Shown here: one piece after another, positions 24,001 through 29,299 of the stretch
Layout of the letters: each line of letters opens with the position of its first letter
Position numbering within the stretch: position 1 is the stretch's first letter
DNA from: a virus
Lineage: Duplodnaviria > Heunggongvirae > Uroviricota > Caudoviricetes
Direction: 5' to 3' (one strand)
DNA length: 29,299 nucleotides
IMG/VR virus record: IMGVR_UViG_2737471869_000011
Made by a program: the position numbers

Positions 24001-27000
24001 TCTATTTAATTAGGAATAAGGTCGATTACTGATAGAACAAATCCAGGCTACTGTGTTTAGTAATCAGATTTGTTCGTGACCGATATGCACGGGCAAAACG
24101 GCAGGAGGTTGTTAGCGCAACCTCATGCCACCCGCTTTCACGAAGGTCATGTGTAGAAGGCCGCAGCGTAACTATCACTGATGAATTCAGGATAGCCAGT
24201 GGCTACGGCTCAGTTATGGTGCTGGTTAACGGACTTGAACCGCTACCCATTCGCTTACAAGGCGACTGCTCTACCATTGGAGCTAAACCAGCATATTTGG
24301 CGGGACAGCGTGGACTCGAACCACGATAAGAAGGTTAACAGCCTTCCGTAATGACCTTTATACGACTGACCCAAATAAAAAAAGCCACCGTTGCAACTTA
24401 AGAGTCACTAACGGCAGCTTACCCTCTAATTATGGCTAAATGGCTAATTGCATGTCAAGGTTTTTAACAGCAACATGCTTAACTTTCTCAACACGTTTAC
24501 GCATTTTGAAAGCATTTTGCATTGGTTGGTACAAAACAAATAATGACGCTTTCAGGATGTCGTCAATTTCGTTTCTACAGGTTGCCAGTGAAGGTTTTCT
24601 CCATCCCTCGCCACCACGTCCACACATCTTGCGTGGCTTTGCAGTCGCGTGATAGTAGGATGCAATTGCTCGCTTAGATGAACCATGAGCGTAGTAGCTG
24701 AGGAGGATGCCAAAGGCTTTTTTGTCAATGTACATGACGGAATCGACGACCTGAGAAATCAACATTCCATCATCATCATTGCACATTGGCCTTGTCATAA
24801 CTCTTCCCGGCTCTACGCTCTCCATGAACTTCGCTATTACGCTGCTCATGCGCTTTTCCAGACGACCTGAATAAACCCATGCGCCCCACAGTTCAAGCCA
24901 GCCATTCAGCCACTCGTGCTGCTCTTTGGTGAGGTTTAGTTCTCTTATGCCCACGCGCCTTCTCCCTGTACCTGAATCAATGTGAGGTTTCCGCAGAACA
25001 CTGCGCCGGTATCGATATACATCTGGTTGGCAAACTTGAGTGGTTTCACTGCTGGCGTATGACCAAAGATGAACGTGTCAGCTCCTTTGATTTCTTTCAC
25101 GATCCCGTCTTGTGAGTTGCTGATTCGTTCGCGGTTCCAGATTACCTGCTGATGATCAACTGGCTTTCCAAATTCGTATTCGTCACAAGGATAATCGGCG
25201 TGGCAGATGACATATTTTTTACCTTCGCTCACCAGTTCGATGATTAACGGAAGTTCATCTGCTTTATGGGCAAGAGCTTTAGCCAGAATTTCTTTGTCGT
25301 AATCGAGATTAAAGAACCAGCCACCGCCATTAAACAGCCAGTGATTGACGTTTCCACGCTCTGATAAGCCATCAATCATCATTTGCTCATGGTTTCCACG
25401 TACAGCTCGGAACCAGGGGAATGTGATTAATTCCAGACATTCGACGTTCTCTGTACCGCGATCGACCAAATCGCCAACCGAGATAAGCAGGTCTTTTTTG
25501 GTGTCGAATCCCATCGTCTCCAGTTTTTTCATCAGGTTCGTGTAGCATCCGTGCAGATCGCCAACTACCCAAATATTTCGGTATTTGCTGCCATCAATTT
25601 TTTCGTAATAGCGCATCTCTTTCACTCCATCCGCGGTGAACCATAAGAACACCGTTGACGATAGCGTGTCTTTTCCCTTCTTTATCGCCAGTGTATTTTC
25701 TGACCGTGTTGCGACTACAGTTCAGTATTCTGGCTACCTCGGTCTGATTTTCATATGCCTCAACGAGCATGTCAGGAATGGTTTTTACTGTGAACGTCAT
25801 GCGGCCTCACTTCTGCTGTTTCGCAGGTCTTTAAGTTTCTGCTGATACTTCGCCTTGATCGCCCTGCATTCTTCGACAGTCCAGCGATGGCGGTTATGGT
25901 TCGATTCGATTTCGTCTACTGCTTCCTGCCCGATGCGGTTAATCAGTTCGACGCGATACGGAACGAGATTTCCGCTTTTGTGCTGGTTGCACACCACGCA
26001 TTGCTTGTGAATATTGCGTTCATCAAATCGGAGTTGAGGTGTCGCAGCAGTTGTCCGGTAATGTCCGGCATCCCACTGAGCAGACGTGAGCGTTCCGCAC
26101 GAGATACATGGTAAGTCGCGGTCTCTTTCTCTGATGAAGGCGTTTACGGCTTGTTGGGCTTGTTTAATCCAGTAACTGCGGGGCTTTAAGGCGAGTTTTC
26201 GAATCTTAAGTTTATCTTTCTGTTTCTGCTCCTCTCGTCGTCGTTTCTTCTCTGCTGCCTTTTCCGCTTTTTCGCGTTCTTTGCTTCGTCGTTCGAGTGC
26301 TAATTGAGTTCCGTGTTCCGGGCTGCACCACCACTGATTTGAGAATGCCGGGTGAAACCATTCCTTACAGATTTTGCATTTCCTTCGCGCTGGTTTAGCC
26401 ATTAAGCAACCTCCCCTGTTACTTTCAGCATTCCGTTATCGAGCAGCTTTCTGGTCAGCCACTGTTGACCACGCCCGGTGATTTTTGTGGTGAACGATAT
26501 CTGTATTCCGTGATTTGTATTGACCGCTGTTTCTTTCACTGTGAAATAGCCGCGCTCCATATATTCCTGCATTGGCACATTTCGCCGGGAACCTGAAGCA
26601 ATAAGGATTTTGTGATCGCGCATCCACGCAAACAGTTTGTTTGGACCAATACCAACAACCTTTGCAAAGTTTCCAATCAAAATTCCGCTGGCCTCGCCAA
26701 CGCGATCGGCAAACTCAACTTTAGGTGCGGCAATTGCGAGCTGGTTTTCCAGTTGCATTTTCTACTCAGCAAGATCAGCAGCAAGGCGCAACGCTTCTGG
26801 TAGCGTTTTGGGGATATTAACCGCAGCTTCTTCAAGCTCTCGCCAGCGGTCAACAAGGCGAGCGGTGAATTCCGGCGACAGCTGGGCTACAACGACAATA
26901 CTGTCTCGCTTTCCTTGTTCGCCTTCGAAGACGTAATGCTCGTACTGAACATTGAACCCTAAGTTATTGATTCTTTCGGAAACCTCAATTTGAGGAAGCC

Positions 27001-29299
27001 GGATAACACCATTTTTAGCCAGCGTTTCGATGGTACGTTTCACATTGTCATGACGCTTACCCACCAACTCAGCGATTTCAATGCTTGTCATTTTGATGGC
27101 ATTGCCATTTATTAACTCACTCATCGTCTTCTTCCTCGTACATTGAGCTATTCGGATCGCTCATCAGTTCTGCGCAGCAATCGGAGCACACGTGAACTTC
27201 CAGCACATGCAGCTTCTGACCGCAGTTAGCGCACGTTAAAGCCCGCTCGACGCTTTCTTTCTGGTATTGAAGGGATTGGGATGGACTAAGCATGGCTTTC
27301 ACCATTAAAAAGTCGCTTGTAAGCATCAATGTCTCGTTTTGCTTCACCGAGCTTTCGTCTTAATTCCATGTTTTCTGATTCAAGCTTTTCCATGTCTTGC
27401 TGGTATCGGTCGCGGTGTTCTTTCCATGCTTTTTTATACGCCTTCATGTATGTCATGTTGGCCTTTCTCTTTGCCTGACGAACTGCGTGGTGGTTTTTCA
27501 CAAACCAGTCAGGGTCGTTAAATGCTGCTCTGGCGCAGGTATACCAATAATTTGTTGCCTCCCTGTTTAGCCAATAAATACTGATAAATGGCAACCGGAT
27601 AGACACCATTTTTCGTTGAGACTCTTTCTCGCCAAACATGTGCCCTTTTTTGATGCTAAGGCCAAATCCAGGTTGAATTAAAAGCATTGTCATGTCCTCT
27701 CACATTGAAAATTCAGCAATAAAAAACCCAGCCGAAGCTGGGTTTGTTAAGTTGTCAATTGTCAGTAGCGATGCAGTGAAGGCGGCAACTCTTTGTTCTT
27801 AAGCCTTTCCCATGCCAGAAGGTTCGTCGGCCCGTCAGGCTCATAAATATCTATATCCCGCGTGTGATTAATTAAAACGCCCCTCGCCCTCCCGATGATA
27901 TACGAGAACTCATAGCCGTAGTCGTGGCATATGCCGGAATAGCCAGACTGAATCAGTTTTAATGCGGGATACAACTCACGGAACAATGCCTGTGAGCGGT
28001 TGGCATAATCCCACAGCCAAACAAGGCTGTCTGTTTCTTTTGCGGAAAGCCCGTTGGGCTTCTTCTCTTGTTTGCCAGTATTTTTCTTGCACTGGCTGAA
28101 ATAGCAGTCTTCCAGTTTTTCGAACACTTCCCACGCCTGATCGGTTTCGAGCATTTTGGCGTGACGGGCAGCGCCGCGTTCAGTCCAGAGGATGAGGGAG
28201 CGGGTTTTGGGGGAAATTTGCAGGTAACTAAAAGTTACTCGCAAATTTTTCAGATCATCGCCAACGATTTTGAAATAATGCTTCCCTTCCAGAAAACGAG
28301 TTTGATTACGTGAATGATTCATTTTTATGTTGGCAACATCCGTTCCATAAAGATGCGCCAATAGCTCGGTGGTTATGACAGGGATCTGGTTGTGGGTAAT
28401 CGGGGAAAGAGTTTCAACTGCGATTTTGGTGGCCATAAGATGATCCTTTTTCTTTGTGAATCATCACCACCTGCGACGCCAATCGCTTGGTGGTGAACTG
28501 TGCAGGGTTGGCGTAACCGGGAAAAAGGAACCGGCGCGGATTGCTCCGCCCCCACACAGCCCACCATTGAGATGTGACTGTGCAAACGACAATAAAAAAG
28601 ACGCTGGCGCGTCTGTTGTCGCCTTTTTCATCCGGGACGCCAATCCCGACGCCAGATTTTGCTGGCGTGTGAGGAATATAGCCCCGGATAAATCATCGCG
28701 TCAATCCCCTTGTATTCCTCGCACGATGTCTTAGCCACCGGATATCCCACAGGTGAGCCGTGTAATTGAAGGTTTTTACGTCAGATTCTTTTGGGATTGG
28801 CTTGCGTTTATTTCTGGAGCGTTTCGTTGGAAGGTATTTGCAGTTTTCGCAGATGATGTCGGTGATGCTTCGTCGCTGTCGTCTCATTCTGCCCTCCTGA
28901 CGCCCTGCCCGATCGCCATCAATGCCGCTTTGGATACGGTAGTAAACATCCGTCGAGGACTGATGAACGGTCGCCAAATCAGCAGCATGGAGCCTTTGCT
29001 GTTTCCCTTCTTCTCCAGCCCTGTCGATGGTTCGATAAAATTAATCCGTCCATCAGTGATAATGCGAACTTCGTCGACACTCTCCAGAGCCTTGCTGAAC
29101 CATCCGACTGACATATCCTCTGGCACAAGCATAACTACCGTCTGTCGCTGTTGTATGCACTGCTCAGCGGCTTTTTCCACCCACGGCCTGATATTGCTGT
29201 ACGGTGGGTTATTCCAGATTGCACCGTGGCTTACCCACTCAGAATTGAGCGCGTCGTCGGCCTCAGTTAGCCAGTGAGCACACAGAGCATTTTTGTCGC

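Follow-up and report, generated by a model that had tools for sequence, protein, structure and literature searches.

A nonsense mutation in the roi gene of a lambdoid Escherichia coli prophage clone, probably an instance of ordinary prophage decay

Introduction

The roi gene of phages HK022, HK97 and the Shiga toxin (Stx) phages lies between ninF and ninG in the nin region and encodes a protein that combines a Phage_pRha domain with a KilAC domain. Roi is said, from work by Clerget and Boccard in 1996, to bind a site in its own gene and to inhibit lytic growth in hosts deficient in integration host factor (IHF). Rha, reportedly described by Henthorn and Friedman in 1995 from phage phi80 together with a P22 homologue, has the phenotype of Roi, that is, phage growth is inhibited in IHF-deficient hosts. 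Rha and the Ant1/KilA proteins of phage P1 are namesakes of the domains concerned (PF09669, PF03374), and their kinship with Roi is at the domain level only. The 1996 study of Roi (J Bacteriol 178:4077) is cited in PMC3430580 and PMC4587872, and roi is interrupted by the insertion sequence IS629 in the Stx2a phage types PST1-3 and PST1-6 of Escherichia coli O157:H7 (PMC4587872). Here, we analyze a roi gene broken by an in-frame amber codon in a stretch of 29,299 nucleotides (hereafter, the window), the IMG/VR record IMGVR_UViG_2737471869_000011, which is contig JWZR01000196.1 of the E. coli draft assembly GCA_000819375.1 and comes from a lambdoid prophage of E. coli whose head is of the lambda type and whose contractile tail is of the P2 type.

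The gene in the window is the same as that of HK022, HK97 and the Stx phages in length, position and domains, and differs from an intact roi by TAG instead of CAG at codon 121, with the product truncated or split, and by the substitution A239V. The O157:H7 phages carry a break in the same accessory gene, caused there by insertion of an IS element and here by a point nonsense mutation. We read the locus as a recent nonsense mutation in a dispensable gene, that is, as ordinary prophage decay and not as amber decoding, with a probability of roughly 86%.

Results and discussion

The interrupted roi gene

We identified two open reading frames (ORFs) in the same frame on the minus strand of the window, the first of 120 amino acids (aa), closed by TAG, and the second of 118 aa, ending in TAA (26404..26402) (Table 1). 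A single AAA codon (26761..26759) separates the TAG from the ATG of the second ORF (26758), and the translated junction reads ...LRLAADLAE*KMQLENQLAIAAPKVEF. An earlier note, made from the sequence alone, had described this layout, which is confirmed, and had taken the ORF pair for one Rha/KilA-C antirepressor polypeptide split by the amber codon. In the joined product, Pfam places Phage_pRha (PF09669) at residues 12-99 with 39 bits, against a cutoff of 29.9, and ANT/KilAC (PF03374) at residues 126-228, with 115.5 bits on the 118-aa ORF; the product is assigned to the PHROG family phrog_63.

The 951 bases around the amber codon match 383 phage records. In Stx2 phage 86, Stx2a_WGPS8 and HK97, a single annotated roi coding sequence (CDS) of 723-726 bp occupies the interval between ninF and ninG or its counterpart; the product is 240 aa long in the first two, and the roi region of HK97 is about 92% identical to that of the window. 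Across 723 bp, the window differs from phage 86 and WGPS8 by two bases (99.7% DNA identity), namely, CAG to TAG at codon 121 and GCT to GTT at codon 239 (A239V). Because only these two bases separate the span from an intact roi CDS, the adjacency of the two ORFs is not due to chance. Thus, the comparison with these relatives bears out the single-polypeptide reading and establishes, at the level of sequence, that roi was ancestrally one 240-aa protein. The ORF pair has both domains and the nin-region position of Roi and, with a TAG at codon 121, lacks the single polypeptide of approximately 240 aa; judged from the alignment, it is a disrupted member of Roi, and the fused, ancestral state is one base away.

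The relatives name the product either "DNA-binding protein Roi" or, in RefSeq re-annotation, "anti-repressor Ant". Both domains of the proposed Rha/KilA-C antirepressor are present, but roi is the more exact name, and "antirepressor" appears to be only a label carried over by homology from the Pfam ANT and PHROG names.

Origin and spread of the amber allele

Codon 121 is CAG (Gln) in three aligned intact roi genes, which identifies the ancestral codon. On this alignment, the stop is a single C-to-T transition on the coding strand (Gln121, CAG to TAG), in the ancestral context GAG CAG AAA, which is not a Dcm site.

The window is the whole of one contig in a draft assembly, and a sequencing or assembly artefact has to be considered. 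However, at least 19 contigs, drawn from independent NCBI assemblies and Sequence Read Archive runs, encode exactly the 120-aa product (GDJ68018.1, among others), which refutes a sequencing error for the roi amber. The same TAG occurs in GCA_023188235.1 (locus L156), where no protein is called at the site, perhaps because the gene is annotated as a pseudogene. For a second amber codon, in the tape-measure gene and seen in the data of one isolate only, a consensus substitution error is barely conceivable and nothing points to one. An artefact as the source of the interruptions is therefore a negligible prospect.

Over stretches of up to 20.6 kb, the carrier loci share 99.98-100% identity with the window, GCA_023188235.1 showing zero differences across 20,616 bp; they therefore constitute one very young prophage clone. 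The amber allele is real and is inherited within this nearly identical clone, and none of the other roi copies examined has it. A 61-mer containing the TAG had no exact match among 646 places in 5426 complete E. coli genomes, and among the matches listed for IMG/VR contigs, the TAG version of a 37-mer was found in none and the CAG version in at least 120. The site is also CAG in two prophages with a large terminase identical to that of the window (loci L158 and L161). A stop programmed for readthrough would be conserved in diverged homologues; here, the TAG is confined to one clone. Within the clone, A239V (GCT to GTT, window 26409, roi codon 239) separates two sublineages, one with V239 (the window and loci L005-L007, L010 and L012) and one with the ancestral A239 (L008, L009 and L011). 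The nearest complete E. coli genome, 08-00022, covers 75% of a 25-kb query at 97.6%.

Loss of roi in related prophages

Five further prophages share the large terminase of the window exactly and have lost roi wholly or in part. In four of them (L157, L159, L160 and L162), the gene is absent and ninF is followed directly by ninG; in the fifth (L154), only a 129-aa ORF with the ANT domain is left. In addition, a 148-aa "Rha-like" protein (P0010), present on 262 contigs including that of E. coli W, is a frameshifted roi remnant, with its C-terminal approximately 40 residues corresponding to an alternative-frame ORF of the window (26677-26856, minus strand), that is, to the linker/KilAC region read out of frame. 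The remnant is an independent clonal truncation just after the Phage_pRha domain, like that in the window, but its cause is a frameshift, at about codon 106, and it is not immediately followed by a KilAC ORF in frame. In our reading, which goes beyond PMC4587872, the natural disruption by IS629 suggests that roi is dispensable. Taken together, the comparisons indicate that roi is a dispensable accessory gene of the nin region and is often lost.

A second amber codon and other lesions in the clone

The earlier note had pointed to a second amber-interrupted gene in the same prophage. We found one other pair of long, same-frame open stretches split by TAG in the window (4782..4780), in a gene that we assign to the tail tape measure from its place between the tail-assembly chaperone and gpU and from weak matches to PHROG tape-measure families. 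An intact 550-aa orthologue is encoded by E. coli 08-00022 and by most related loci retrieved. This amber, too, arose from CAG (ATC CAG GCT to ATC TAG GCT). An ancestral CCAGG Dcm site spans it, and the mutated C is the inner, Dcm-methylated cytosine. Dcm sites are reportedly deamination hotspots for amber mutations (CCAGG to CTAGG), as in lacI according to Coulondre et al. in 1978. The tape-measure amber is exactly such a change, whereas the roi amber lies outside a Dcm site.

The two mutations are differently distributed. The tape-measure amber is the sole difference between the window and the sibling prophage in GCA_025028455.1 (L027) over 15,260 bp, the corresponding 445-aa product occurs on one contig only, that of the window, and GCA_047262175.1, a carrier of the roi TAG, reads CAG at the position. 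The two mutations therefore date from different times; the tape-measure amber is, on these comparisons, an independent and later event private to GCA_000819375.1. Falling at codon 55 of 550, it should abolish tail assembly in this isolate.

Siblings have suffered other damage. In GCA_047262175.1 (L030, 8321-10728), an IS21-family element with IstA/IstB-like genes is inserted in the tail-fibre assembly gene, flanked by a 9-bp duplication, ATACACACC (window about 7962-7971), and a 2-bp deletion frameshifts the tape-measure gene (window about 4466-4467). GCA_018191215.1 (L029, 11433-15260) is 100% identical to the window up to position 4850, within the 5' end of the tape-measure gene, where a P2-like prophage encoding an integrase, a C-type repressor, Cox, RepB and GpA is joined; the junction reads CTGAAAAAGGG followed by AGATTTAGGG and resembles the right-hand part of the att core of P2. 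Thus, tail genes of the clone have been struck independently in several isolates, and the lesion pattern is one of generic decay, not specific to amber codons. The features of a nonsense pseudogene are all found here: a stop created by a single base, a shallow clade, a gene disrupted or absent elsewhere, and other lesions in the clone. The roi lesion would have come first and the tape-measure amber later, as steps in the decay of the prophage.

Expected products and the possibility of gene fission

Under decay by nonsense mutation, ribosomes starting at the ATG at 27124 would terminate at the UAG, and the 120-aa fragment set free would carry the complete Phage_pRha domain. Translation of the KilAC ORF could begin at the pre-existing Met123, 3 nt downstream of the stop, presumably by low-level termination-reinitiation at most. 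The 20 nt upstream of this start form an anti-Shine-Dalgarno duplex of -2.3 kcal/mol, compared with a mean of -3.3 kcal/mol at random positions; across 38 gene starts on the minus strand of the window, the median is -7.4 kcal/mol. Efficient independent initiation of the KilAC ORF was rejected as unlikely because Met123 has no Shine-Dalgarno sequence. When UAG is occasionally read through in E. coli by a near-cognate tRNA, Gln is inserted, which here would restore wild-type Roi. Given that ninG has a strong Shine-Dalgarno sequence of its own (-11.9 kcal/mol), its translation should not depend on that of roi, and, with an N gene present in the same prophage and transcription antiterminated by N, Rho-dependent polarity on ninG through Q should be small. 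Roi function would accordingly be lost or much reduced, which probably costs the phage and the host little or nothing.

Three observations weigh against this account. First, the stop falls between the two domains, in the linker, and an in-frame ATG follows 3 nt later; both domain ORFs therefore remain intact, as a functional fission would need. Second, both ambers derive from CAG, and a Gln-inserting suppressor would restore both wild-type proteins. Third, the clone, with 0-1 single-nucleotide polymorphisms per 20 kb, is so young that the survival of the allele is uninformative about selection in either direction.

The first observation is the core of the case for a selected fission, in which a Phage_pRha protein and a separately translated KilAC protein would keep or change the function of Roi. 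Both ORFs are intact in every carrier examined, a PHROG family of about the length of the KilAC domain alone exists (phrog_9438, 121 positions), and such domains are reportedly shuffled extensively among phage regulators, according to Iyer, Koonin and Aravind in 2002. However, roi has 20 transition paths to a stop codon, of which 2 lie in the linker, so that chance alone would place the stop there about once in ten, and the ATG was already present in the ancestral gene. The poor initiation signal of the KilAC ORF also speaks against fission, retention of the two ORFs in so young a clone is uninformative, and the sole later change in the C-terminal ORF, A239V, is nonsynonymous. Homologues in which the two domains are encoded by separate adjacent genes with the same boundary, which the earlier note had named as refuting its single-protein reading, were sought: among the N-fragment matches listed, mostly partial or truncated entries, the only same-boundary splits are copies of the window allele and none is independent, and four of the six short N-fragment matches inspected are frameshifted or end near the boundary. 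A natural two-gene architecture was rejected on these grounds, and we regard a functional fission as unlikely.

Chance expectation for two ambers and the case for suppression

The earlier note had considered two amber interruptions in about 29 kb to be more than chance would allow in a functional phage. Across the 40 genes of the window, which contain 8567 codons, we counted every single-base change that yields a stop. TAG is the most probable outcome: its share of the nonsense paths is 40% at equal substitution rates (TAG, TAA and TGA standing at 40:38:22), 44-48% once a transition bias (2-4) is allowed for, and 60% if only transitions are counted; CAG to TAG alone makes up 40% of the transition nonsense paths. 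With TAG at 40-60% of nonsense outcomes, the probability that both of two stops are TAG is 0.16-0.36. This expectation and the differing distributions of the two mutations led us to reject an amber excess; the ages of the mutations and the non-amber lesions of the siblings likewise speak against the claim.

Suppression or readthrough would require that the host or the phage decodes UAG, for example, with a Gln suppressor tRNA, so that Roi and the tape-measure protein are made at full length and the prophage is functional. Both interruptions are TAG codons derived from CAG, a purine follows each, and natural coliforms with amber suppressors have reportedly been described, by Marshall and Levy in 1980. 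Against this, scans of the window and sibling loci, approximately 37 kb of the prophage clone with the early region included, revealed no suppressor tRNA and only tRNA-Asn(GTT) and tRNA-Thr(TGT) genes, and a suppressor tRNA within the scanned part of the prophage was rejected. Furthermore, TAG is the normal terminator of 3 of the 40 window genes, Q and the holin gene included. The ambers are not of joint origin, as they are differently distributed, sibling prophages decay by non-amber lesions, and two TAG codons out of two are well within expectation. Decoding of the ambers is accordingly extremely unlikely. A carrier lineage with a natural Gln-inserting amber suppressor or raised UAG readthrough, in which both alleles are phenotypically silent and the prophage is viable as a natural conditional phage dependent on the suppressor, or, in a milder form, a working two-protein Roi, is a highly unlikely scenario as well; a host suppressor, if it existed, would make this a natural example of suppressor-dependent phage genes.

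Decay by recent nonsense mutation thus being preferred, the ORFs now annotated as "hypothetical protein" or as "Rha" and "KilAC" are better treated in annotation as one roi pseudogene containing an internal stop codon, and the prophage in GCA_000819375.1 is to be scored as tail-defective owing to the tape-measure amber. The event is of a known type, in which an accessory gene, itself already known, becomes a nonsense pseudogene as the prophage decays, and its significance beyond annotation is slight. It provides a small example of stepwise decay, in which an accessory gene was lost first and tail genes were then damaged independently in near-identical siblings.

Other features of the window

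Table 1. Coordinates of roi, its neighbors, the tape-measure gene and the tRNA genes in the window
Feature	Coordinates	Strand	Basis or remark
Ancestral roi gene, now broken at codon 121	26402..27124	-	240 codons, 723 bp; Phage_pRha + ANT/KilAC
Roi N-terminal ORF, 120 aa + TAG, with the entire Phage_pRha (winged-helix type) DNA-binding domain	26762..27124	-	Pfam
Amber TAG from CAG (Gln121), interdomain linker	26762..26764	-	Alignment with intact roi genes
Roi C-terminal ORF, 118 aa, KilAC/ANT domain, start at ancestral Met123	26402..26758	-	Pfam
ninF, upstream neighbor, overlaps roi start	27117..27326	-	Pfam NinF on the gene called in locus L005; annotation of relatives
ninG, downstream neighbor, start overlaps roi stop (TAATG)	25797..26402	-	Own strong Shine-Dalgarno sequence
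Tail tape-measure gene, 550 codons, amber at 4782..4780 (codon 55)	3292..4944	-	Position, weak PHROG matches
tRNA-Asn(GTT) and tRNA-Thr(TGT)	24217-24372	-	Just downstream of Q, the spot where Stx phages carry tRNA genes

Between ninE and an antirepressor gene with ORF6N and P22_AR_C domains, upstream of this 224-aa ant (27762-28436), Rfam models match at 28486-28681 (minus strand), with 78.6 bits for isrK, 74.3 bits for C4 antisense RNA and 50.1 bits for the c4 a1/b1 target element. The region looks like a P1 immI-like or Gifsy-1 IsrK-like RNA control module for the actual antirepressor of the prophage.

Between the lysis cassette and the terminase, there are two genes on the plus strand. The one at 22114-22695 is annotated in a relative as a lipopolysaccharide core heptose(II)-phosphate phosphatase and has a faint match to His_Phos_1, and the other, at 21900-22103, is a 67-aa ORF. 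Together, they look like a cargo insertion ("moron") that is conserved in prophages of the same head and tail type.

Next to the tape-measure gene, at 4925-5364 (minus strand), we identified a tail-assembly chaperone of 100 aa (Phage_TAC_7) and, after it in a different frame, an ORF of 45 aa that overlaps the start of the tape-measure gene. By analogy, this layout resembles the programmed-frameshift pair E/E' of P2.

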